This document shows, in pieces, positions 2,829-51,213 of a stretch of 51,213 nt of DNA. The DNA lies in the IMG/VR virus record IMGVR_UViG_3300010939_000106, positions 1-51,213 of that record; one strand, written 5' to 3'. How positions within the stretch are numbered: position 1 is the first letter of the stretch; each line of letters begins with the position of its first letter. Source of the DNA: a virus (lineage: Duplodnaviria > Caudoviricetes). Both the position numbers and the translations under genes were made by a program. The notes beneath the pieces were generated by a model that ran no database searches, was not told where the DNA came from, and was given only the letters and a program-made list of their open reading frames with translations.

Positions 2829-4390
2829 GGCTCAATCTCCGTGATAACTATGCTTGACGCCGCGATGCCACCGAACCTTCGTGTCCCAGCCGATCCATTG
2901 AACGTCATCGTGCCTGCGATGTCCGAGCCGCCTCTTACCCTGAATGTCGTCGCTGACACCGTACCTGCCGCCATGATGTGCGTGAACGCGATCATTGTTG
3001 CTTCATTAGTTCCCGCCTTAGTGTCAGATACGGCGGCTAGAGCATCGGCGACAGAGTCTTGAAAGAGGGCGGCGTGAATCGGAGTAGAACCTGGCTCAGA
3101 GTTTGCGAGCCATATGGTGACCTCTATTATTAGCCTATTGCTTGCACTCGCAGGAGTAATGCTGAGGGTCATATACTCGTCGCCTTCGGTGTTCTGGGGG
3201 ATCGTGTCGTCGCTCGGTATCGTTGTCGTGCCCGTGGCGACTACCCCAGTCTCGATCGAGACAATCTGCTTAACGACGCCGGCTGCTGTTACACCCATCG
3301 CCCCAAGCGAGCGCCAACTGGTCCCCTCGGTCCAGATCAGCGTCCACTCGTTCTGGGCAAGCGTCATGGTGGCGCTGCCGTCGATGGTCTCGGCTCCCGC
3401 CGGGTCGATGGTCAGCGTGCCCGCGCCGATGTTCTTGATGAAGGCAACGAAGCCTGCGCCCAGGGTCGCCGCGGCGGTCAGGTCGAAGGTGATCGCGCTC
3501 CCCAGATTGGCGATGAGCATGGTGCCCACGTCAGCCGCGACCACGGTGTAGGGAGTGGCGGTCTTGATCGCTTGGGGCAGGCGTGAGAGCCGCGTCTGCG
3601 CCCCTAACGGCAATTCAGCATCGGCGGTGCCGATCAAGACGTATTTCGGGTTCTCGGCGTCGCTGGTATCGAGGATTGCCACCTTGTCGCCGGTGGCCCC
3701 GGCGACCGTCGGCTCGGTGCCGGCGAACACCCCATCGGCACCGGCCGGTCCAGTCGCTCCAGTCGTGCCTGTAAGGTCAGCGACCGGTGTGCCCCAGACC
3801 CCCGCTGACTTCGGTCCGTAAACCTCGTCCGTTGCCGTGTCGAGATACATATCGCCGTCGATGCCGAGGCTCGCTGCCGGCGCGCCTGAGCCGGTCAGCC
3901 ATTGCACTGCGTCGGCGTTCTCAAGGGCGTCCGCAGCGCTGTTCCAACGCAGGTGCTTGAGCGCCGAGGGATCGGGAACGGTGAGCCCTGTCTGCGCCGA
4001 GGTCGCCTTGACCGTGATCGCCCGGTCGATCTGTTCCTGAAGTTGCTGGTCGGCCATCGTGCCGCGATCCAGCGCATCCTCATGGGCCTGCGCCGGAAAC
4101 TTCCCGCCTTCGGGGTAGTCGGTCCCCTGCGTCAAGGGGACCACGCGCTTGATAACAAGCGTCTCGCCACTGGCCGGCGCCGTGGTCGCCGTCAAAGTGC
4201 CGCCAGAGGGGTCGCCGGCACCCGTCAGGGTATAATCGGTGCCCTCCACCCAGGTCGTCTCGACATCGTTCGCGTCCCGCAGGATCGCCGTGATGTCGGC
4301 GTTGGCGAGGAACAGGAACGGCACCGAGAAGGCAGTCGTCGAGCCGTCGCCGGCGTAGGAGACTTTGTTAGCCGCAGAAGGAACGGTCAT
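2825..4390 (-). CDS. Tail fibre protein with a T7 gp17-like N-terminal attachment domain
   Basis: YAGDGSTTAFSVPF...DYTLTG...LVIKRVVPLTQ...HEDALDRGTMADQQL N-terminus, Gly/Thr-rich shaft, distinct C-terminal domain. Confidence 0.88.
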   Translation of the reverse strand: MTVPSAANKVSYAGDGSTTAFSVPFLFLANADITAILRDANDVETTWVEGTDYTLTGAGDPSGGTLTATTAPASGETLVIKRVVPLTQGTDYPEGGKFPAQAHEDALDRGTMADQQLQEQIDRAITVKATSAQTGLTVPDPSALKHLRWNSAADALENADAVQWLTGSGAPAASLGIDGDMYLDTATDEVYGPKSAGVWGTPVADLTGTTGATGPAGADGVFAGTEPTVAGATGDKVAILDTSDAENPKYVLIGTADAELPLGAQTRLSRLPQAIKTATPYTVVAADVGTMLIANLGSAITFDLTAAATLGAGFVAFIKNIGAGTLTIDPAGAETIDGSATMTLAQNEWTLIWTEGTSWRSLGAMGVTAAGVVKQIVSIETGVVATGTTTIPSDDTIPQNTEGDEYMTLSITPASASNRLIIEVTIWLANSEPGSTPIHAALFQDSVADALAAVSDTKAGTNEATMIAFTHIMAAGTVSATTFRVRGGSDIAGTMTFNGSAGTRRFGGIAASSIVITEIEP

Positions 4391-12196: not shown

Positions 12197-12279
12197 TCAG
12201 CACTCAGCAAAAATCTAAGCTGACGGCTGACAGGCTGACGGCTGACGGCTGACGGCTGACGGCTGACGGCTGACGGCTG
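12183..12279. repeat. Heptamer tandem array (GCTGACG)n with an inverted (TCAGCAC)n arm
   Basis: tcagcgatcagcactcagcactcagc-aaaaatctaa-gctgacggctgacaggctgacggctgacgg..., about 8 right-arm units. Confidence 0.9.
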
Positions 12280-29948: not shown

Positions 29949-30384
29949 GATCAGCTTTCAGTGTACGGCCACGCTTTGGCTGACGGCTGACGGCTGACGG
30001 CTCGCTTTCAAGGTTCTTGCATATCCACCTCACCAGCTTGGGATTGTCGCGGAAGACCGTCGCGAAGCCGTTGCTAAAGAGGAGCGCGGCTTGTTCCTGG
30101 CCGATCATCTCATTGTCGCCGCGGCCCCATACCGACCAGATCGCGTGGCTTAGCTCGTGCAGCATGGTGCTCGCCACATTATGGGCATCGAGGCCAAGGT
30201 CGATCCAGATATAGCCGAGGCTGCTGCTGCACGACCCGAACTTCTGCTCGTTGACGGCCTGGGCATGATCGGCCAGATATACCTCGTAGTCGCGGAAGCC
30301 GATCTTGATTCGTCCGGGCGGCTTGCCGCGCGTGGCCCGGCTTGGCGGGATCGTCGGGTTGATCATGGGCTTTTCCTCACTCAT
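29938..30384 (-). CDS. Small HExxH metalloprotein
   Basis: IKIGFRDYEV...TMLHELSHAIW. Confidence 0.65.
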   Translation of the reverse strand: MSEEKPMINPTIPPSRATRGKPPGRIKIGFRDYEVYLADHAQAVNEQKFGSCSSSLGYIWIDLGLDAHNVASTMLHELSHAIWSVWGRGDNEMIGQEQAALLFSNGFATVFRDNPKLVRWICKNLESEPSAVSRQPKRGRTLKADHGG

Positions 30385-32120
30385 CCAACCTCCGCGAGTA
30401 ATGGCTCGGCGTTCGCCTCAAAATCGTCGATGCGCCGGCCGATCCAGCCCATGACCGGCACCGCCATCGCGTTCCCTATCGCGCGGTAGCGCGGCCCGTC
30501 GGGGCAGTCCTCGGCGGGCCTGCCGCGCCAGGGGATCCGGGTGAACCCACGCGGGAAACCTTGGAGGGCCTCGCACTCCTCGACCGTTAATCTGCGGACT
30601 GCGTAAGTTCCATGTGTTGGTTGACCTTGACCGCCATCGGATTGCCCCACTTCTTCCAGCGTTGATAGTGCTTGTCGCAGTAGCCGTGACCCTTCATCGG
30701 CTTTCCGCAGACAACGCACGAGGCGCGCCGCCGGTGAAGGCGCATATGGCAGGAGCGACAGAGCCGCTCCAAGTTCTCCGGCGAGTTGTTCAGATGGTCG
30801 CCATCCCTGTGGTGGACGTCCAAGGCATCCGGCGCGCCACAGCGAGAGCACGACCCCTTCGGGACAACCTTGCGCGAATGCCAGTGCATAGTCGACCAGT
30901 CCGTGCTTCGGCTCGGTCGGGCATCGAACGCCGCGGCCATGCAGGAACGATCGCAGTATTTCCGGCGCCGGAAGTGAAGCAACGACTCCAAGACCCCATT
31001 CCTGAAACGCTTGCGCTCCAACCGCTTGTCGCAATGTGCGCAGTAGCGCAACGGTGTCGGCTTCCTCGGATAGGCCATAATTGTCCTCCGTCTTGCAGGA
31101 GAATGCGATGGCCGGAACGCCGCTCGTGATCCCGCCATCACCACGTCTCAGGCTTGGCAGATGTGTACCCACGTTCCCCCCGTCGCATTGCACCGGCACC
31201 AGCGGCGGGCCGCGCAAGATCGACTGATCCATGCCGTCCTCGCTGGCGTCCGCGCCCTCGGCGGTCAAGGCATGGCACACGAACGTCTCGGACGCGAAGT
31301 CCTGGCGGCCGTGCGCCCCCGTGTGGGCGGTGCGGGCGGTGGCCACGTCTAGCGGCCCTCGCGTCCGGTTGCCGCCATAGGCGAGGACGGCGTTTCGCAT
31401 CCGGCCGTCCTTGCCGGCGGCCGCCCCGCCGTGCTTTCCAAGGCTCGCCGTAATTGGATCGGCAACTCCTTGCCCCGCCGCGCGGCGCGGCGCAGGATGC
31501 CCCGACAGGCTTTCGGGCTCAAAAAGTACCGCCGCAGATGGTCGCCAGTCTCCAAGATATCCGACAACGAAGACGCGACGGCGGCGCTGGGGGACTCCGA
31601 AATATTGAGCGTCAAGCACTCGCCAGCAGCCAAGATACCCGCTGTCCCGTAGCGTGCTGAGGAAGGCCGCGAAATCACTGTTTTCGATAAATTCCATAAA
31701 TCCCCCTGACTGTCCCGGCTGTCCCGGCGGTATTTCGTCCGCCGATGCACCGCTCCAATTGGACAGGAGGCCGGGGACGTTCTCGAATACCAGCCAGCGG
31801 GGCCGAAGCTCGCGAGCCACGCGAAGATAGACCAGCGCCAGGTTGCCGCGCGGGTCGTCCAGGCCGAGCCGTTTGCCGGCGACCGAGAACGACTGGCAGG
31901 GCGTTCCTGCGATAAGAAGGTCAACTGGCCCATGATCCCGCGCCCTTTCCGCGAAGTCCGGTGCCGCCACGTCGCCCAGGTTCGGCGCGTCCGGCCAGTG
32001 GTGCGCCAGGACGGCGGAGCAGAACCGGTCGGTCTCGGCGATCCACGCCGGCGGCCCCCACAGATCCGCCCACGCCAGCTCCGGCGCGCCGATCCCTGAA
32101 AAGCACGACGCCCATTTCAC
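30381..32120 (-). CDS. C5 DNA cytosine methyltransferase with a long insert in the variable region
   Basis: Motif I FSGIG, IV GTPCQSFS, VI ENV, VIII VPQRRRRVF, IX RRLTVEECEALQGFP, X RYRAIGNAMAVP. Confidence 0.92.
   Translation of the reverse strand: MKWASCFSGIGAPELAWADLWGPPAWIAETDRFCSAVLAHHWPDAPNLGDVAAPDFAERARDHGPVDLLIAGTPCQSFSVAGKRLGLDDPRGNLALVYLRVARELRPRWLVFENVPGLLSNWSGASADEIPPGQPGQSGGFMEFIENSDFAAFLSTLRDSGYLGCWRVLDAQYFGVPQRRRRVFVVGYLGDWRPSAAVLFEPESLSGHPAPRRAAGQGVADPITASLGKHGGAAAGKDGRMRNAVLAYGGNRTRGPLDVATARTAHTGAHGRQDFASETFVCHALTAEGADASEDGMDQSILRGPPLVPVQCDGGNVGTHLPSLRRGDGGITSGVPAIAFSCKTEDNYGLSEEADTVALLRTLRQAVGAQAFQEWGLGVVASLPAPEILRSFLHGRGVRCPTEPKHGLVDYALAFAQGCPEGVVLSLWRAGCLGRPPQGWRPSEQLAGELGAALSLLPYAPSPAARLVRCLRKADEGSRLLRQALSTLEEVGQSDGGQGQPTHGTYAVRRLTVEECEALQGFPRGFTRIPWRGRPAEDCPDGPRYRAIGNAMAVPVMGWIGRRIDDFEANAEPLLAEVG
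30587..31078 (-). CDS. HNH endonuclease nested in an alternative frame of the methyltransferase
   Basis: RBS GGAGG 6 nt before ATG; CAHC...YCDRSC; CSRCG...DVHHRDGDHLNNSPENLERLCRSCHMRLH; CVVC...GYCDKHY. Confidence 0.8.
   Translation of the reverse strand: MAYPRKPTPLRYCAHCDKRLERKRFRNGVLESLLHFRRRKYCDRSCMAAAFDARPSRSTDWSTMHWHSRKVVPKGSCSRCGAPDALDVHHRDGDHLNNSPENLERLCRSCHMRLHRRRASCVVCGKPMKGHGYCDKHYQRWKKWGNPMAVKVNQHMELTQSAD
31349..31933 (-). CDS. Alternative-frame ORF inside the methyltransferase (possible beta-subunit-type polypeptide)
   Basis: Protein-like segment GECLTLNISESP...SSLSDILETG...YFLSPKACRGILRRAARRGKELP..LRRALE. Confidence 0.55.
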   Translation of the reverse strand: MGQLTFLSQERPASRSRSPANGSAWTTRAATWRWSIFAWLASFGPAGWYSRTSPASCPIGAVHRRTKYRRDSRDSQGDLWNLSKTVISRPSSARYGTAGILAAGECLTLNISESPSAAVASSLSDILETGDHLRRYFLSPKACRGILRRAARRGKELPIQLRRALESTAGRPPARTAGCETPSSPMAATGREGR

Positions 32121-33175
32121 GCGCTCACCTCCGCCTCGACCCCGGTAAGCAGGTCGTTGAAGTCGTGGGTCCCATCGGGCGGCCGGGCGATCAAAACCTT
32201 CCGCCCCTGGCCGGTGAACGCCTCCACGGCGCGCGCGAGCCCTTTCTTGGCGCCCTTGTTCGCGCCGTCGTTGTCGGCGCAGATCAGCACCCGCTCGACC
32301 GCCCCCGGCAGCACCACGTTCTTCATGTTGCCGAGGTGGACGGCCGCCAGTACGCGCAACTCGGGCTTGGCGATGGCGACCGTAAGCCCGTCCTCGATTC
32401 CCTCGGTGAGCGCGACCGTCTCGCCCGGCCCGGCTTGCTCAAGCGGTCGTCCGCTCGCCCCCTGCCACAGCCGGATCGCGCCGCCTGCATAGCGCCCCAG
32501 CGTCATCTTCGGTTCCTCCAAAGGCGCCTTGCTGACGGCTGAGGGCTGACGGCTGTCTATCGCCAGCCACGTCCGGTGAACTGCGGCGAAACCCCCGGCC
32601 GGATCCAGGACTGCGGCCAGCAAGGCCGGCCAGAACTTGCCGCTCTCGCGGTTCCAGCAGTTGCCGTGGAAGCGCAGCGCCCGGGGCTGGCGGGAACAGC
32701 CTTGGCTGTCCTTCAAGCTCGCGAGATCGATTCCTCGGCCCGCCAGATAAGCCGCCGCTGGCGTCTCCCTGAGCCGTTCGCTCGCCCCCCGCCACAGCCG
32801 GAGCGCGCGCTCGCGATTCTGGTTTTCCTCCGCTCGAGCGGCAGCCGCCTTCGTGGCTCGGTCTTGCTTTGCTAACGGCTGACGGCTGACGGCTGACGGC
32901 TGATGGCTCTCCAACAAACGCGCCACCGCTTGCGCAAAGGACAGGTTGTCCATGTGCATGATGAAGCCGATGACATCGCCATGGGCGCCGCAACCGAAGC
33001 AGTGATAGAACCCTTTGTCCTCGTTGACCGTGAAGGACGGGGTCTTCTCGTTATGGAAGGGGCACAGGCCGAGGTACTCCCGGCCCCGCTTCTTCAACTG
33101 CACCCGACGCCCGATCGCCTCAGCCAGCGGCGCGCGGCCGCGGAGCTCATCAAGAAACTCGGGCGTGAAGGTCAT
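32117..33175 (-). CDS. DNA primase (CHC2 zinc finger + Toprim)
   Basis: GLCPFHNEKTPSF...YHCFGCG; LTEGIEDG; ICADND; DFND. Confidence 0.92.
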   Translation of the reverse strand: MTFTPEFLDELRGRAPLAEAIGRRVQLKKRGREYLGLCPFHNEKTPSFTVNEDKGFYHCFGCGAHGDVIGFIMHMDNLSFAQAVARLLESHQPSAVSRQPLAKQDRATKAAAARAEENQNRERALRLWRGASERLRETPAAAYLAGRGIDLASLKDSQGCSRQPRALRFHGNCWNRESGKFWPALLAAVLDPAGGFAAVHRTWLAIDSRQPSAVSKAPLEEPKMTLGRYAGGAIRLWQGASGRPLEQAGPGETVALTEGIEDGLTVAIAKPELRVLAAVHLGNMKNVVLPGAVERVLICADNDGANKGAKKGLARAVEAFTGQGRKVLIARPPDGTHDFNDLLTGVEAEVSA

Positions 33176-42296: not shown

Positions 42297-42560
42297 ATGA
42301 TGAGAAACGTTCTGCTTGCGGCGCTCCTGTTGCTTGCCCCTGCGCCCGCAGCGGCCTACCATAACCTCACCCCCCATGACGATCCTCTTGCGGTCCATGA
42401 CGCAGGTAACGCCGCCTCAGACTGGTTCCGTGACTACATGCTCCGCGGCGAGATGGATCAGCTGCGCCGGGAGCAGGAGCGGCTGCGCCGGGAGCAGGAG
42501 CGGCTGCGCCGGGAACAAGAGCGGCTGGACGCCGAAAATCGCGGCTCTTTGCTGTATTGA
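42297..42560 (+). CDS. Small secreted protein with a (LRREQER)x3 coiled coil
   Basis: Signal peptide; 21-bp tandem repeat; RBS AGGAG. Confidence 0.65.
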   Translation: MMRNVLLAALLLLAPAPAAAYHNLTPHDDPLAVHDAGNAASDWFRDYMLRGEMDQLRREQERLRREQERLRREQERLDAENRGSLLY

Positions 42561-42621: not shown

Positions 42622-42858
42622 ATGGTGAAGGCGTGGCGCGACATGGATCTGGACCGCCGGGTCGCCGCCCTCTCGCTTGTATTGTGGGGGGCAGGCATAT
42701 ATCCGGTCTATGCGTTCATATTGTGGGTTCACGCGGCGGCTGACTGGTGGTTCCTAGATTATCTTACCTATATCCTGGCGTTCTGTTGGTTCTATCTTCT
42801 GATCCCCTTGCATAAATACATCGGCTGGTTTTTCGAGAAACGCGACTTGGGATCCTGA
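42622..42858 (+). CDS. Small two-TM membrane protein
   Basis: Aromatic-rich hydrophobic helices; RBS GGAG; downstream of the repressor. Confidence 0.6.
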   Translation: MVKAWRDMDLDRRVAALSLVLWGAGIYPVYAFILWVHAAADWWFLDYLTYILAFCWFYLLIPLHKYIGWFFEKRDLGS

Positions 42859-42923
42859 CCACCCCTGCGCAAAGCTGACCACATCTGCGCAAAGCTGACC
42901 ATCCCTACGCAAAGCTGATCACC
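42855..42923. repeat. 20-bp tandem repeat, about 3.5 copies
   Basis: ctgaccacccctgcgcaaag / ctgaccacatctgcgcaaag / ctgaccatccctacgcaaag / ctgatcacc. Confidence 0.85.
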
Positions 42924-46041: not shown

Positions 46042-48144
46042 ATGTCGGAAAATAAAGCCATGGCCGCCGCCGAGGCGGATATCGCCAAGCAGAAGGCCGC
46101 GCCGCACGGAACCGCACTTACCCGAAATCTGCGCCAGAGGGTGAAACAGCGAGGCCTGTCCATCCGCGCGATCGCCGCCGGGGCCGGCGTCGACCACTCC
46201 GATCTCTCGCGTCTCCTCAATAACCAAAAGAAGCGGGTGAGCCTGGATTTGATCACCCGCTTGGCGGCCTACTTCGGCTGCACCGTCTCCGAGCTCCTGG
46301 ACGAGGCCGCGCCAGCCGCCGAGCCGGTCGAAGGCGTCGGCGTGATCGTCACCCTCGGCCAGATCAAGCCGCCGTCCTTCAATGCCCGCAAGCTGTTCGC
46401 CGAGGCACCCCTCGCCGAGCTCGCCGAGTCCATCGCCGAGCATGGGCTCTTGCAGGACCTGATCGTCCGATCGCTCGGCGGCGCCGGCCGCTATGAGCTC
46501 GTCGCCGGCGAACGCCGCTGGCGCGCGCTGCAGCGCCTCGCCAAGGACGGCCGCTGGAAGCCTCACCAGCCGGTGCCATGTCGCGTCGTCGAGGGTGATG
46601 ATGCCTCCATGCGCGCCGTGGCGTTGGTCGAGAACCTTCAACGCGAGGACCTGGCCCCGCTCGAGGAAGCCGAGGCCTACGCGGCGCTCTGCAAGCTCGA
46701 CCCCAAGACATGGACGTCGGCCACGATCGCCAAGAAAGTCGGCAAGACCCGGCGCCACGTGCAACTCCGCCTCTGGCTCCTGGCCAGGCTCGCGCCGCCG
46801 CTCAAGACGGCCCTCGCCGAGAACAGGATCACCCTGGCCCAGGCCCGCGCCGCCAGCGTCGCGACGCCGAAGCGCCAAAAGGAGCTTCTGCCCGACATGG
46901 TCGAGGATGGCGAGCTTGCCACCGCCGAGGACGTGCGGTACGCCGCGACGAGAGACTGGATCCCGCTTGAGCTTGCCATCTTCGACCTCGAGGGTCTCGA
47001 GTCCTCGATCGCCGAGGATTCTGAAACCGGCGAACGCTATTTCATCAATCACAAGCTGTTCCTCGAGCGCCAGAGCAAGGCCGCCGAGGCCAGGGTGGCC
47101 GAACTCAAGACGGTGTGGGCCTGGGCCGAGCTTCGCGACTACTATTCTGAATGGGAGTTTGGGCACAGTAGCGACAAGGCCAAGGCCGGAGCCATCGTCA
47201 CTTTCACTTCCTACAACGGCAAGGTCGGGGTCCACACTGGCCTGGTCAAGCGCGCGCCGGCGAAAGCTAAAGCCAAGGCCGACGCCCCACGGCCGGAGTT
47301 CACTAAGGCCCACTTGATCCATGCCCACAACGTCAAGACGTCCGCCCTACAGGCGGCGATCGCCGGCGATCACCGTAGCGCCTTGATCCTGGTGATCCTG
47401 GGCCTCATGGGCGCGACGCGTTGCGTCCACATCAGCGCCGACGGTCATGGCGCGAACGATTTGATCCTGGCGCCGGAAGTCGAAGCTATCCTCGACCGTC
47501 ACCGGCCATGGTTCAAGGATCTCCTGGCCCCCAAGGCCGAGGTCCACATGACGGCCGGGGTGCAGATCACCCCCGCCCGATACGAAATCGGCGCCGGGGC
47601 CGAGGACGAGGTGGCGCTCTATCAGGCCCTTAAAAGTATGGCCGATAGCGACCTTGACGAGCTGTTCGCCGCCCTTGTCGCCGCTCGCGCCGGCACGTTC
47701 AACGAATGGGGCCCTGAGCTCGGCGAGCGGCGGCTGGCCGTCGCCCTGGCCGACGATCTGAATATCGACATGGCCGACCATTGGCGGATCGACGAGGGCT
47801 ACCTCAAGCTCTGCCGCAAGGCCAGGCTCGCCGAGATCGCCGACGCGATCAAGGTCGGCTTACAGAAAACGCGGACAAGTCGGGGCTTAGGACCGCTCTT
47901 TCTCACTGCGGCCGAGCTCGAAAAACTTCCCGGCCCGAAACTACGCGCCGCCATCCTGGCCCGCCTCGAGGAATTGCGCGCCGCCGGCGCAGCCCCCTAC
48001 ATTCCCCGCGAGATGCGGTTCGGATCCAAGTCTGCCCTCGAGGCGCGCAAGCCTAAACCTCGGCCCACCCAAACCGCCGCCGCCGACAACGATCTTACCG
48101 CGAGCATCCCGCCTCATATGCAGCGCAAGAAACCCGATGGCTGA
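46042..48144 (+). CDS. ParB/Spo0J-family protein with an additional N-terminal XRE HTH
   Basis: GLSIRAIAAGAGVDHSDLSRLLN; LAESIAEHGLLQDLIVR; YELVAGERRWRA; ENLQREDL. Confidence 0.88.
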   Translation: MSENKAMAAAEADIAKQKAAPHGTALTRNLRQRVKQRGLSIRAIAAGAGVDHSDLSRLLNNQKKRVSLDLITRLAAYFGCTVSELLDEAAPAAEPVEGVGVIVTLGQIKPPSFNARKLFAEAPLAELAESIAEHGLLQDLIVRSLGGAGRYELVAGERRWRALQRLAKDGRWKPHQPVPCRVVEGDDASMRAVALVENLQREDLAPLEEAEAYAALCKLDPKTWTSATIAKKVGKTRRHVQLRLWLLARLAPPLKTALAENRITLAQARAASVATPKRQKELLPDMVEDGELATAEDVRYAATRDWIPLELAIFDLEGLESSIAEDSETGERYFINHKLFLERQSKAAEARVAELKTVWAWAELRDYYSEWEFGHSSDKAKAGAIVTFTSYNGKVGVHTGLVKRAPAKAKAKADAPRPEFTKAHLIHAHNVKTSALQAAIAGDHRSALILVILGLMGATRCVHISADGHGANDLILAPEVEAILDRHRPWFKDLLAPKAEVHMTAGVQITPARYEIGAGAEDEVALYQALKSMADSDLDELFAALVAARAGTFNEWGPELGERRLAVALADDLNIDMADHWRIDEGYLKLCRKARLAEIADAIKVGLQKTRTSRGLGPLFLTAAELEKLPGPKLRAAILARLEELRAAGAAPYIPREMRFGSKSALEARKPKPRPTQTAAADNDLTASIPPHMQRKKPDG

Positions 48145-48424
48145 CCGCGTCCTTATTTCCGCCGCCGAAGTGGCAACGAAACTCGGCCACGCCACCGACT
48201 GGTTCTACCGCCGCCGCGACCGTCTCGAGCGCGACCTGGGCTTTCCTCCCTGCGTCGCCGGCTGCGGCAAGCGCTGGGATCCCGAGGCCATCGACCGTTG
48301 GCTCGACGCTCAGATGCCGGCCCCCTTGCGGCCCACGGGCAAGCAGATCGACGACTCCTGGGCGCGCCGCCTCGACGCCCGGGCCGCCGCCCTGGCCGTG
48401 CGCATGGGCGAAGAAGCCGGTTGA
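48137..48424 (+). CDS. Putative excisionase (AlpA/MerR-like HTH)
   Basis: ISAAEVATKLG...GFPP...RWDPEAIDRWL; directly upstream of the integrase. Confidence 0.75.
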   Translation: MADRVLISAAEVATKLGHATDWFYRRRDRLERDLGFPPCVAGCGKRWDPEAIDRWLDAQMPAPLRPTGKQIDDSWARRLDARAAALAVRMGEEAG

Positions 48425-48484
48425 CAACCACCCGCCGTCAGCGAAGATGCCGGCGGCGCCGATTGCACAGGGAGGCACGAAGAA

Positions 48485-49633
48485 ATGGCCCGAATCAAAA
48501 TCCGCTATCTGACCGAGCGGTCCGCGCGCCGCGGCGGCGTCCGGCGTTTCTGGCAGCCCTCGGCCGCGCTCCGGACCGATGGCTGGCGCATGGTTCGCCT
48601 GCCCGACGATCCTGCGGCAGCCATCGCCGAGGCCGAGCGCCTGAACGCCCTCCTCGACGCCTGGCGCCGGGGTGAGGATATGCGTGATGTAATCCCGCCG
48701 GCAGTCAAGGCCCCGCACCGCATCCGCCCGGCGATCCGCACCGTCGACGCCCTGATCGCCGACTACCGCGCGGCCGAGGACTTCACCCGCCTCCGGGCCT
48801 CGACCCGGCGCGGCTACGAGCAGAACCTGGCCATCATCTCGGATTGGGCCGGCGATGCCCCGGTCCGGGCCCTGACCCCGAAGCGCTGCAGGGCGCTCCA
48901 TGCCCAGTTCAAGATCGAGACCCCGGCCAAGGCCAATGCGGTCCTCCGGGTCCTTCGCCTTCTCCTGGAGTACGGCCGCCGCGACGATTGGATCGAGATC
49001 AACCCAGCACGCAAACTGAAGCTCGCCGGGCTCCCGCCCTCAGGCCGGCTGTGGCCGCGCGAGGCGGTGCAGCTGTTCGCCCGGACCGCCGACCGGATGG
49101 GCCGACCGTCGATCGGCACCGCCGTTATCCTGAACGAGTGGCTCGGCCAGCGCGAGGGTGACCTGATCCGCCTATCGCGGTCGATCTACCGTGAAGGCAA
49201 CCTGTGGATCACCCAGGCGAAAACCGGGGCGCAGGTCACGTTGCCGGTAGACATGGTGCCGCACTTGCGCGCACGGCTCGAGGAGGAGCTCGCCCGCCAA
49301 ACCGTCGCCGAGGTCACCGCGACGACGCTCATCGTCTCGGAGGTCACCCGCCGCCCCTACGAGGCCGACAACTTTCGCCACGTCTTCGCCGCCGTCCGCG
49401 CCGAGGCCGCCAAGGAGATGCCGGAGATCGCGCAGCTTTGGTTCATGCATCTGCGTCACACCGCTATCACCCGCCTCGCCGAGGCCGGCTGCGAGCTGCC
49501 CGAGATCGCCGCCATCACCGGTCATTCCCTGCCGACCTGTCAGGCGATCATCGACCGCTACCTTATCCGCACCGGCGAGCTCGCCCGCGCCGCCTTCCAG
49601 AAACGCCTTGATGCGGAACGGAACGGCGCGTAG
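48485..49633 (+). CDS. int: Tyrosine integrase
   Basis: GQREGDL (R), QAKTG (K), HLRHT (HxxR), ITGH, DRY (Y). Confidence 0.95.
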   Translation: MARIKIRYLTERSARRGGVRRFWQPSAALRTDGWRMVRLPDDPAAAIAEAERLNALLDAWRRGEDMRDVIPPAVKAPHRIRPAIRTVDALIADYRAAEDFTRLRASTRRGYEQNLAIISDWAGDAPVRALTPKRCRALHAQFKIETPAKANAVLRVLRLLLEYGRRDDWIEINPARKLKLAGLPPSGRLWPREAVQLFARTADRMGRPSIGTAVILNEWLGQREGDLIRLSRSIYREGNLWITQAKTGAQVTLPVDMVPHLRARLEEELARQTVAEVTATTLIVSEVTRRPYEADNFRHVFAAVRAEAAKEMPEIAQLWFMHLRHTAITRLAEAGCELPEIAAITGHSLPTCQAIIDRYLIRTGELARAAFQKRLDAERNGA

Positions 49634-50194
49634 ATGGCAACAATCAAGGTCCGTTATTTCACGAAACGTGTCGGCAAACGCGGCAACGTCCGTTACTTTT
49701 GGGAGCCGGGCGGCGCTCTCCGCCAGAAAGGATGGCGCACAAGGAGACTGCCGGACAATGAATTGGATGCGATCACTGAGGCCGAGATAATCAATGCTGG
49801 TCTGGATATGAGCCGTCGTTCACACCAGCCGACCGAAGGCATCTCTATTAATTCCCAGCAACAGAAGTACACACCGGGTGGAATATATATCATCGCGTCA
49901 CCCAATGGCCCGGTGAAAATCGGAGTCACCACTAATCCGATGCGGCGACTAGCTCACCTCCAGCAGTCTACACCAAACAAACTGGATCTTCTATTCTACA
50001 TGAAGTGTCGTGAGATACACGCGACTACAGCCGAGCGGGTTGTCCATTATCTGTTGAGCGCCAAGCGATTAAAAGGCGAGTGGTTCGCCGTGACACCTGA
50101 GCATGCTATCGCCGCGATCTTCCGCGTACTGGGTTGGCATCCGCCTAAAGTCAAAATGTTCCGGGAGGCCATGCACGTAGACCGGCCCGATTAG
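49634..50194 (+). CDS. Fusion of an integrase N-terminal domain and a GIY-YIG (T5orf172/MUG113-like) nuclease
   Basis: First 58 aa align without gaps to the integrase N-terminus; GIYII...VKIGVTTNPMRRLAHLQ...ERVVH...RLKGEWF. Confidence 0.8.
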   Translation: MATIKVRYFTKRVGKRGNVRYFWEPGGALRQKGWRTRRLPDNELDAITEAEIINAGLDMSRRSHQPTEGISINSQQQKYTPGGIYIIASPNGPVKIGVTTNPMRRLAHLQQSTPNKLDLLFYMKCREIHATTAERVVHYLLSAKRLKGEWFAVTPEHAIAAIFRVLGWHPPKVKMFREAMHVDRPD

Positions 50195-50284
50195 TATTAG
50201 AGTGCTTTAATTTTCGTCGGTGAAGGCCCATAGTATAACAGCCTCTGACGGCCAACGGTTTCGTTTTCAACACAAAGCACCAAT

Positions 50285-50329
50285 CTCTTAATCAGCGGGT
50301 CCCGGGTTCGAGTCCCGGATCGCCCCCCA
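50285..50329 (+). tRNA. 3' half of tRNA-Lys(CTT): att core, not an intact tRNA
   Basis: ctCTTaatcagcgggtcccgggttcgagtcccggatcgcccccca: anticodon loop, T-arm with TTCGA, acceptor 3' strand and CCA; upstream sequence lacks a D-arm and 5' acceptor strand. Confidence 0.85.
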
Positions 50330-50372
50330 TATTTATCAAATAGTCACCACGCACTTCATCGTGCCTGGAGCT

Positions 50373-51213
50373 ATGCTGCCGATCTTCTCAAAGCCCGTGG
50401 ACCAAATCACCGCCGAGGACGTTAGCGCACTTGTGGCGAACAAGTGGCCCGAAGGCGACACGGTTGAGTTCAAAGAGGCGCTTCCCAGCAAGAAAGCCGG
50501 CGGTGATCCTTGGATCACTGGGGCCAACAGCATTTCGGATTACGCCCGCAATGAGATTTTGGCCGGGGTCGTGGCGTTCGCAAATGCTCATGGGGGCATG
50601 GTCATCCTCGGCATCGCGGAGACTACGGACAAGCTGCCCCGAGCTGCCGCTATCAACCCGCTTCCCCGTTGCGCGGAGCTGGCCGAGCGGCTTCTCGACC
50701 AGGCTCGGGAGTGTATTGAGCCCAAGCTGCCCGTGCTTTCCGTGCGAGGCGTTGAAATGGACAAAAAGGGCAACGGAGTTGTTGTCTTTCGCGTGCCCCA
50801 GTCACGTCTGGCTCCTCACCGGCTGGAGCCCACTCGTCACTGCTATTACCGAAGGGCGGCTAGCAGCGAGAAGATGACCATGCGGGAGATACAGGACCTC
50901 ACCTTGCGCCTTGAACGAGGTCTTGAGGCTATCGAACGGCGGTTTATAAAACAGCGAGAGGCGTTTGAGAAATGGGTCACGGCGGGGGGAATAGGTTCGG
51001 ATGGCGTTCCCGCTTTCGGCATAAAGAGCACGGCAATACCCATGTCTGCGGACCTAAACGTGGAGCGCGTTTACCAAAGGCCAGAATACCTCCCGGCTGT
51101 TCGCCCATTCGCCGCAAAGGTGGAGAAAAGCGGAGTCGAACTGCTAGTACCGAATATACCGGTCAGGGAAAGGCCGATACTCCGCGGGACGCTCAGAGAG
51201 TACGATGATAGGC
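50373..51213 (+). CDS. Schlafen/AlbA_2-domain protein (runs off the window; absent from the ORF track)
   Basis: RBS GGAG; MLPIFSKPVDQITAEDV...EGDTVEFKE...VVAFANAHGGMVILGIAE...VPQSRLAPH...YYRR. Confidence 0.8.
   Translation, partial: MLPIFSKPVDQITAEDVSALVANKWPEGDTVEFKEALPSKKAGGDPWITGANSISDYARNEILAGVVAFANAHGGMVILGIAETTDKLPRAAAINPLPRCAELAERLLDQARECIEPKLPVLSVRGVEMDKKGNGVVVFRVPQSRLAPHRLEPTRHCYYRRAASSEKMTMREIQDLTLRLERGLEAIERRFIKQREAFEKWVTAGGIGSDGVPAFGIKSTAIPMSADLNVERVYQRPEYLPAVRPFAAKVEKSGVELLVPNIPVRERPILRGTLREYDDR

Follow-up and report, generated by a model that had tools for sequence, protein, structure and literature searches.

A phage protein family joining an integrase-type N-terminal head to a predicted T5orf172 nuclease domain near attachment sites

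The DNA analyzed here is the 51,213-base virus record IMGVR_UViG_3300010939_000106 (Caudoviricetes), taken in full and referred to as the window; unless a locus is named, coordinates refer to it. The left part of the window encodes tail and virion genes, and its right end carries a lysogeny module in which the gene for a tyrosine integrase (int) is followed directly by an open reading frame (ORF) that we call the fusion gene. The product of this ORF joins an N-terminal head, closely similar to the head of the integrase, to a C-terminal T5orf172/MUG113 domain of the GIY-YIG superfamily. Both domains are retained together in a family of diverged proteins, and the genes of this family lie next to phage attachment (att) sites in every locus for which we have context. 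We suggest that these proteins may be att-arm-directed nucleases, either mobile or serving phage-phage competition, a reading that we consider about evenly balanced between being right and wrong.

Domains and predicted folds of the fusion protein

The ATG of the fusion ORF begins at the first base after the TAG stop codon of int. BLASTP aligned the N-termini of the integrase and the fusion protein without gaps, with 36 identities in 65 positions (55%, E = 1e-20). An earlier annotation of this DNA, made from the sequence alone and hereafter called the first-pass annotation, had reported 34 identities against integrase residues 1–58, also ungapped, and a hand count on the BLASTP alignment agrees. 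It had also read the remainder of the ORF as a GIY-YIG/T5orf172-type domain, and two Pfam models bear this out by exceeding their gathering cut-offs: PF13455 (MUG113) at residues 94–162, with 63.6 bits against a cut-off of 22.3, and PF10544 (T5orf172) at residues 82–164, with 49.6 bits against a cut-off of 20. The head of the fusion protein was matched by no model in Pfam or NCBIfam, and the Pfam arm-binding models matched neither this head nor that of the integrase at E ≤ 1. A PADLOC search gave only a weak match, of the nuclease domain to PDC-S57 (E = 2.6e-7), and the family profile searched against PDB sequences returned only weak UvrC and Hpy188I rows (E of 0.5–2) amid chance rows.

Conservation was examined in an alignment of 36 family members that are 23–43% identical to the protein of the window. 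Residues W23, G33, L39, and A46 of the head are invariant, as are Y85, K95, G97, R105, E134, E149, and W150 of the nuclease domain, and positions conserved among integrase heads are preserved in the fusion head as well. The length of the linker between the two domains differs widely among members.

The AlphaFold2 model of the fusion protein has a predicted local distance difference test (pLDDT) score of 87.3. Its head consists of strands at residues 9–13 and 19–23, a short bridge at 37–38, and a long helix at 43–63, followed by a low-confidence linker and a compact alpha/beta C-terminal domain with pLDDT mostly above 90. The AlphaFold2 model of the integrase (pLDDT 84) shows the same pattern in its head, and the arm-binding arrangement of a three-stranded sheet plus a helix, anticipated by the first-pass annotation, was seen in both models. 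In an exhaustive VIA-align comparison, the fusion head matched residues 8–60 of lambda Int (1z1b; Z 5.0, root mean square deviation [rmsd] 3.4, 53 aligned residues, 21% identity), as well as 2wcc, which is the lambda Int 1–64 domain on P′2 arm DNA (Z 5.0). In lambda-type tyrosine integrases, the small N-terminal domain binds arm-type att sites. The integrase encoded next door is of this lambda type: the top Foldseek matches of its model were full-length lambda Int structures 1z1b and 1z1g (E of about 1e-11), and phmmer aligned its residues 114–306 with residues 103–294 of lambda Int chains (E of about 1e-3). As modeled, the head of the fusion protein has a lambda-Int-like arm-binding fold. For the C-terminal domain, VIA-align matched At-HIGLE (Z 7.3, 82 aligned residues, rmsd 3.5), Slx1 (Z 6.5 and 6.0), I-TevI (Z 4.6), PD-T4-3 (Z 4.5), and T4 EndoII (Z 3.8).

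Distribution and origin of the family

A HMMER scan of 1.84 billion cluster representatives yielded 6,074 matches at E ≤ 1e-3. Among the best 150 of these 6,074 matches, at least 46 carry both domains, 94 carry the nuclease domain only, and 10 carry the head only; the count of 46 is partly circular, as 36 of these proteins had themselves gone into the domain profiles, with 10 further proteins still recognized. The two-domain representatives are 130–248 aa in length, plus one 616-aa read-through, and the 10 head-only representatives are integrases, as judged by their length, or partial ones. The first-pass annotation had allowed that the fusion might be a one-off chimera with no homologs of the same build, which the retention of both domains in so many representatives speaks against.

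The family is nonetheless rare and known only from uncultured sequences. A word-index search for close relatives returned the protein of the window only, and scans of genomes and viral contigs with single-protein patterns gave no relatives. Within the viral contigs, pattern P0002 had no match and pattern P0007 matched 11 loci, all of them integrases. Among related loci that we fetched (labeled L below), 63 ORFs have the head alone, which reduce to 57 distinct integrase heads once duplicates are merged. Most phages with this integrase type lack the fusion gene.

The fusion gene differs in composition from its neighbor. Its GC content is 0.537 against 0.695 for int, in agreement with the first-pass impression of a lower value, and its GC content at third codon positions (GC3) is 0.60 (0.60 in the head and 0.59 in the nuclease domain) against 0.87. 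Locus L055 has a contrast in GC3 as well (0.71 for the fusion and 0.95 for int), and L013 and L054 do not. At the DNA level, the 5′ ends of int and the fusion gene are diverged, with 118 of 216 columns invariant, which argues against a recent local duplication. The idea that the N-terminus of the neighboring integrase had been re-used locally is not upheld, as the whole gene has a foreign GC3, its head included, and the own integrase is the closest in only two of four pairs of fusion and integrase heads. We also built a tree of 140 nuclease domains, in which the fusions cluster (9 label changes versus 38.8 in shuffles, with none of 500 shuffles as low), though at 98 columns the alignment is too short to decide between one origin and several. 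Taken together, these data point to a long-established gene family, transferred between phages as a whole rather than built in place from the neighboring int.

Attachment sites and the cargo slot

The att core of the window runs from the anticodon loop to the CCA end of a tRNA-Lys(CTT). ARAGORN found no whole tRNA at 50285–50329, so the core is a fragment; it matches the tRNA-Lys(CTT) of L054 and five other loci, and it could be aligned to the tRNA-Lys of L054 and to the cores of L055, L087, L089, and L090. The stop codon of the fusion gene ends at 50194 and the core starts at 50285, leaving 90 bp between them, the distance that the first-pass annotation had estimated. The same tRNA-Lys core is also present downstream of int in 17 other fetched loci, some of which are duplicate records. 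Core and int are on the same strand in the window and in L094, and on opposite strands in the 17 others. Some phages of the group therefore have the att segment in the reverse orientation with respect to the int module, which in the window puts the fusion gene on the other arm.

Relatives carry short repeats beside the core. Fourteen of the 17 loci (L003, L006, L010, L012, L014, L020, L032, L054, L055, L061, L087, L090, L091, and L092) were examined, allowing one mismatch to a motif selected by eye in each. A locus-specific 7–9-mer is present in at least three copies in 12 of them and in two copies in the other 2. The copies are spaced about 11–12 bp apart at a nearly constant offset from the tRNA-Lys core; examples, each present in two to four copies in its locus, are AGTTGGAC, AGTTTGAAC, ACTTGAACG, and CGTTAGAC. 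L094 has three repeats at 2380–2410 in the other strand arrangement. We propose these repeats as the candidate arm-type sites of this alphaproteobacterial integrase group; as they have the properties of such sites, the group would be heterobivalent like lambda Int. No link between head residues and the arm motif was visible in 11 aligned heads.

Within the window, a possible single arm-type site, CTCTGACGG, lies on the 5′ side of the core. It occupies the position at which L014 and L020 carry a similar element, and the arm repeat of L020 is similar to it. Three near-matches to CTCTGACGG that lie together at 4189–4230 were considered as an arm cluster and rejected; they fall inside the conserved N-terminal part of a tail-fiber gene and were taken as chance.

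The three-repeat arm of this phage lies outside the window. The phage contig of run X1, at a depth of 43.3, breaks off precisely with the last base of the core, 50329, and a different continuation follows, with a depth of 70.6 and a resemblance to the arm-side flank of relatives. Contig depth of the right flank versus the phage side is 13.7 versus 43.3 in X1, and 50.3 versus 3–27 (where covered) in X2. It is probable that the final ~880 bases of the window come from the host or another source and became joined to the phage sequence at the tRNA core that both share.

In all four loci with context, no other gene separates the fusion from the att site or from the end of the record. The order in the window is int, fusion, 90 bp, and core. 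In L054, the fusion gene follows int by 2 nt, and arm repeats begin ~35 bp past the conserved domain, before an intact tRNA-Lys. L055 has a small ORF between int and the fusion gene, whose last codons overlap the arm repeats, with the core and a tail-fiber gene after it, an arrangement that indicates attP in a free phage genome. In these two loci, 0–35 bp lie between the conserved part of the fusion and the arm cluster, or the ORF runs into it. L013 reads xis, int, parB, two ORFs, and then the fusion as the final gene at the end of the record, 2.2 kb from int. Across these loci, the constant feature is closeness to att, not to int. Among the family proteins, P0003 is an integrase reading into a fusion, and the ORF tails of P0004 and P0052 resemble translated tRNA, as judged by eye. 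We also note that a ParB-like gene is among those between int and the fusion in L013, and that the reading frame of the L054 integrase (L054:2153–2560) is interrupted by a stop codon in the head, where the Q of the WQP motif would be; this integrase may be a pseudogene, or the stop may reflect a sequencing error.

Comparison of loci with and without intervening genes identifies the junction of int and the arm repeats as a cargo slot. In five "empty" loci, int stops about 8–38 bp before the first arm repeat, L054 and L055 have the fusion gene in this place, and several other loci have 0.7–1.5 kb of varied cargo. The cargo includes a T5orf172 protein with a different N-terminal part (L089:4325–5095), 9 of 22 residues of which are identical to the excisionase-like protein of the window (E = 0.014, a hint only), and an ORF with a weak HNH match below the cut-off (L081:4856–5305, E = 0.025). 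Among the loci, whose integrases are at most 49% identical to that of the window, we found no two close relatives of which one has the slot occupied and the other empty. No promoter-like site was detected within 48000–51213, which, together with the abutting int stop and fusion ATG, fits co-expression of the two genes; the fusion gene is probably co-expressed with int.

Possible function and remaining features of the window

The first-pass annotation had known of no described system with this architecture, a statement that has to be narrowed in light of Odn (Gp88) from vibriophage ICP1, the closest published case. As reported, Odn has an N-terminal domain that is 42% identical to the RepA_N origin-binding domain of the satellite PLE and a C-terminal T5orf172 domain; the borrowed domain directs the nuclease to the sites that RepA itself binds, and the purified protein cuts PLE origins in vitro, with iterons required and an E180A variant inactive (PMC8263062). 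The activity of Odn indicates that T5orf172 can be an active nuclease directed by a DNA-binding domain. In domain architecture, the two proteins are alike in having a borrowed N-terminal DNA-binding domain and a C-terminal T5orf172. They differ in the type of donor, which is an integrase arm-binding head for the fusion and a replication initiator for Odn; in the place of the donor-type gene, which is next door in the same phage for the fusion and in the enemy element for Odn; and in target, since the presumed target of the fusion, the att arms, is a prediction, whereas cleavage of the origin by Odn has been demonstrated.

T5orf172 is described as a GIY-YIG subfamily fused to CapR-type zinc fingers in a 2023 preprint (bioRxiv 10.1101/2023.03.23.533998). 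The modular T5orf172 homing genes of phages share with the fusion a T5orf172 domain at one terminus, exchangeable DNA-binding modules, a location at variable-region boundaries, and a patchy distribution; theirs, however, are CapR-like zinc fingers, Bro-N, or KilA-N modules, mostly in lytic phages, whereas the head of the fusion is of the Int type and its gene is part of the lysogeny module in temperate alphaproteobacterial phages. In Atlas clusters, we found T5orf172 fused to Bro-N, KilA-N, ORF6N, pRha, Rep_O, and Mrr_N. I-TevI of phage T4 can cut away from the site it binds by means of the linker between its catalytic and binding domains. Like I-TevI, the fusion protein has a GIY-YIG domain on a flexible linker to a separate DNA-binding domain, and its catalytic-domain fold is matched as given above; unlike I-TevI, it has its binding domain at the N-terminus, reversing the order, and a Lys in place of the second Tyr of the motif, and the two DNA-binding domains are unrelated. 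With lambda Int, the fusion shares the N-terminal three-stranded sheet and helix of a heterobivalent integrase, with arm-type repeats flanking the core in relatives, but in the fusion this head comes without the core-binding and catalytic domains and is followed by a nuclease domain instead. Our literature search found no paper describing an integrase arm-binding head with GIY-YIG/T5orf172, with supplements outside the search and the possibility that the domain tables of the 2023 preprint list more partners. Modular T5orf172 nucleases are already known to borrow DNA-binding domains against other mobile elements; the fusion would appear to apply the same principle of a targeted nuclease but to be aimed by a new kind of module, an integrase arm-binding head, which the literature searched does not describe in this role.

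We can postulate how such a protein would work. It would be a modular T5orf172 nuclease made of two parts and directed to specific sites: the N-terminal 60 residues, copied from the lambda-type integrase arm-binding heads of this phage group, would dock the protein on arm-type att sites, and, at the end of a flexible tether of about 20 residues, the T5orf172 (GIY-YIG-type) domain at the C-terminus would cut or nick DNA nearby. The gene would be cargo, mobile between phages and housed in the variable slot between int and the att arms. Its use would likely lie in conflict or spread among related phages that share the tRNA-Lys site: like Odn acting on satellite origins, it might cleave the att regions of rivals, or, in the manner of I-TevI-type genes, it might invade "empty" int-att junctions by homing. 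In occupied alleles, the 3′ end of the fusion takes the place of the 3′ end of int beside the arm repeats, which could confer self-immunity. The proposal of an att-arm-targeted nuclease had been put forward in the first-pass annotation and is kept here in part; the conserved fusion, the arm fold, the lambda-type integrase, the arm-type repeats in the family, and the invariant nuclease-type residues are in its favor, and its local making from this integrase is dropped. More tentatively, and with less than even confidence, we suggest a class of att-directed nucleases, used by temperate phages with a common tRNA-Lys integration site, whose detached integrase heads would direct them to empty int-att junctions or to the att arms of competing phages and satellites, so as to exclude competitors or to copy the nuclease gene and the int-att module into them.

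Several observations weigh against an arm-directed nuclease. With only 8 candidates scored per genome, no full-length fusion was found in 401 sampled alphaproteobacterial genomes, 25 of which matched with the head or the nuclease domain only; none of the matches in 50,697 deposited phage records covered at least 80% of the query, and all 14 were confined to the nuclease domain. A three-site arm cluster was found neither near the core of the window nor elsewhere in it, and CTCTGACGG has no second exact copy there, with a one-mismatch count (14 versus 17 expected) that is not above chance. The fusion gene of the window is also on the opposite side of the core from those of L054 and L055. In the nuclease domain, K95 replaces the second Tyr of the canonical GIY-YIG motif, and we tentatively presume R105 to be the catalytic Arg and E149 (or E134) to be the catalytic Glu. 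Regarding the predicted folds, two unrelated apicomplexan mitoribosomal chains tie with lambda Int at about the same VIA-align score, so the fold match of the head is weak taken alone. Z values of 5–7.3 are middling according to the tool's own warning, although they agree with the sequence evidence, and Foldseek on the fusion model gave nothing at E ≤ 0.001, with weak GIY-YIG rows at E of 0.25–0.8. When the fusion heads of four pairs were compared with the 57 integrase heads, a set partly selected by likeness to the query and for that reason biased in its ranks, the own integrase ranked 1, 1, 15, and 40, and both first ranks were held by small margins (0.58 versus 0.57 and 0.69 versus 0.64). 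The co-evolution of head and integrase for which the first-pass annotation suggested a test did not emerge from this comparison, in which the own integrase is not consistently the closest, and the ranks lend no support to a specificity shared with the neighboring Int. A protein that bound the arms of its own resident phage and cut there would harm its own genome, and immunity would have to be assumed. Finally, the reading draws on homologies, conservation, position, composition, and the repeats of relatives, from which arm-site binding, cleavage, target, and benefit are predicted.

The same evidence bears on other explanations. The fusion could be a generic mobile gene, either cargo or a T5orf172 nuclease of the homing type, with a head that is an interchangeable module for some non-att sequence and an int-att gap that is merely a permissive slot. 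The slot does hold varied cargo elsewhere, such as the other T5orf172 protein of L089 and the weak HNH ORF of L081, T5orf172 is joined to many DNA-binding domains, and the heads fail to track the neighboring integrase in two of four pairs. Yet the head keeps the residues conserved in integrase heads, and the fusion adjoins att in four of four contexts, including L013, where it is distant from int and still at the end of the record; we regard generic cargo as doubtful, while taking it seriously. A non-cutting regulator of recombination appears unlikely. Such a protein would occupy arm sites and compete or cooperate with Int, as a directionality or dominant-negative factor, using T5orf172 for DNA contact or oligomerization only, and it would suit a head that is the same as that of Int, a gene within the xis-int-att module, and probable co-expression with int. 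It is harder to square with the invariance of Y85, R105, E134, and E149 in 36 diverged members, with the excisionase-like gene already in the window, and with the lack of the fusion in most phages with this integrase type, as illustrated by the 63 head-only ORFs. An excisionase or recombination directionality factor of the Xis/AlpA type was rejected separately, since Pfam, NCBIfam, and phrog gave no winged-helix or helix-turn-helix (HTH) match of this type to the fusion protein and a separate excisionase-like gene is present at 48137–48424.

It is very improbable that the fusion is a non-functional, one-off chimera from a decayed second integrase, or an assembly artifact. The contig graph branches at the att core, which makes the right flank of the window an uncertain join, but the X1 phage contig covers 47500–50329, with int and the whole fusion ORF, without difference, an X3 contig covers 49613–50314, and the two-domain frame is kept in 46 diverged representatives.

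If the head of an arm-directed nuclease does bind arm sites, the att arms would be a battleground between phages competing for one integration site. The proposal, if true, would also connect homing-type nucleases with the exchange of integration modules in a direct and testable way, the site-specific recombination module itself being the object of conflict and gene drive, and it would provide a small natural protein that reads arm-type sites. The analysis further defines the arm repeats and the cargo slot of a widespread alphaproteobacterial integrase group.

Table 1. Coordinates of features in the window
Feature	Position	Strand	Basis or remark
HNH endonuclease gene	516–1325	−	phrog_1492 and phrog_826, E about 2e-11; lies with tail genes close to the record's left end
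ParB/HTH protein, 700 aa	46042–48144	+	N-terminal Cro/C1-type HTH, then ParB N-terminal and ParB HTH domains; directly upstream of xis-int
Excisionase-like gene, 95 aa	48137–48424	+	phrog_66 "excisionase and transcriptional regulator", E 1.6e-5; upstream of int
Lambda-type tyrosine integrase, 382 aa	48485–49633	+	PF00589, E 1.6e-10
Integrase parts			Residues 1–62, arm-binding-type head; ~87–166, core-binding helices; 192–381, catalytic domain
Fusion gene, 186 aa	49634–50194	+	Integrase-type head and T5orf172/MUG113 nuclease-type domain
Fusion head domain, residues 1–62	49634–49819	+	Likeness to Int residues 1–65; modeled fold
Fusion flexible linker, residues 63–81	49820–49876	+	pLDDT 54–63; residues 70–76 below 50
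Fusion T5orf172/MUG113 (GIY-YIG superfamily) domain, residues 82–170	49877–50143	+	Pfam, invariant residues, fold matches
Possible single arm-type site, CTCTGACGG	50243–50251	+	Tentative; 5′ side of core
att core, 3′ half of tRNA-Lys(CTT), 45 nt	50285–50329	+	Single copy in window
Flank, probably non-phage DNA (host or other element)	50330–51213	.	Contig depth differs from that of the phage side in X1 and X2
Open Schlafen/AlbA_2 ORF	50361–51212		PF04326, E 1.9e-13

The excisionase-like protein listed in Table 1 had no match in Pfam or NCBIfam. Elsewhere in the phage genome, the heptamer GGCTGAC occurs in tandem runs at 12219–12279, 29978–30000, and 32875–32903. ARAGORN called a 95-nt tRNA-His at 32005–32099 on the minus strand, overlapping long minus-strand ORFs at 30381–32120 and 32117–33175, and this call is doubtful given its length and place. 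Finally, two sets of three direct repeats with a period of 20–21 bp, at 42461–42530 and 42855–42915, lie upstream of the replication and partition genes and may be iterons or operator arrays.

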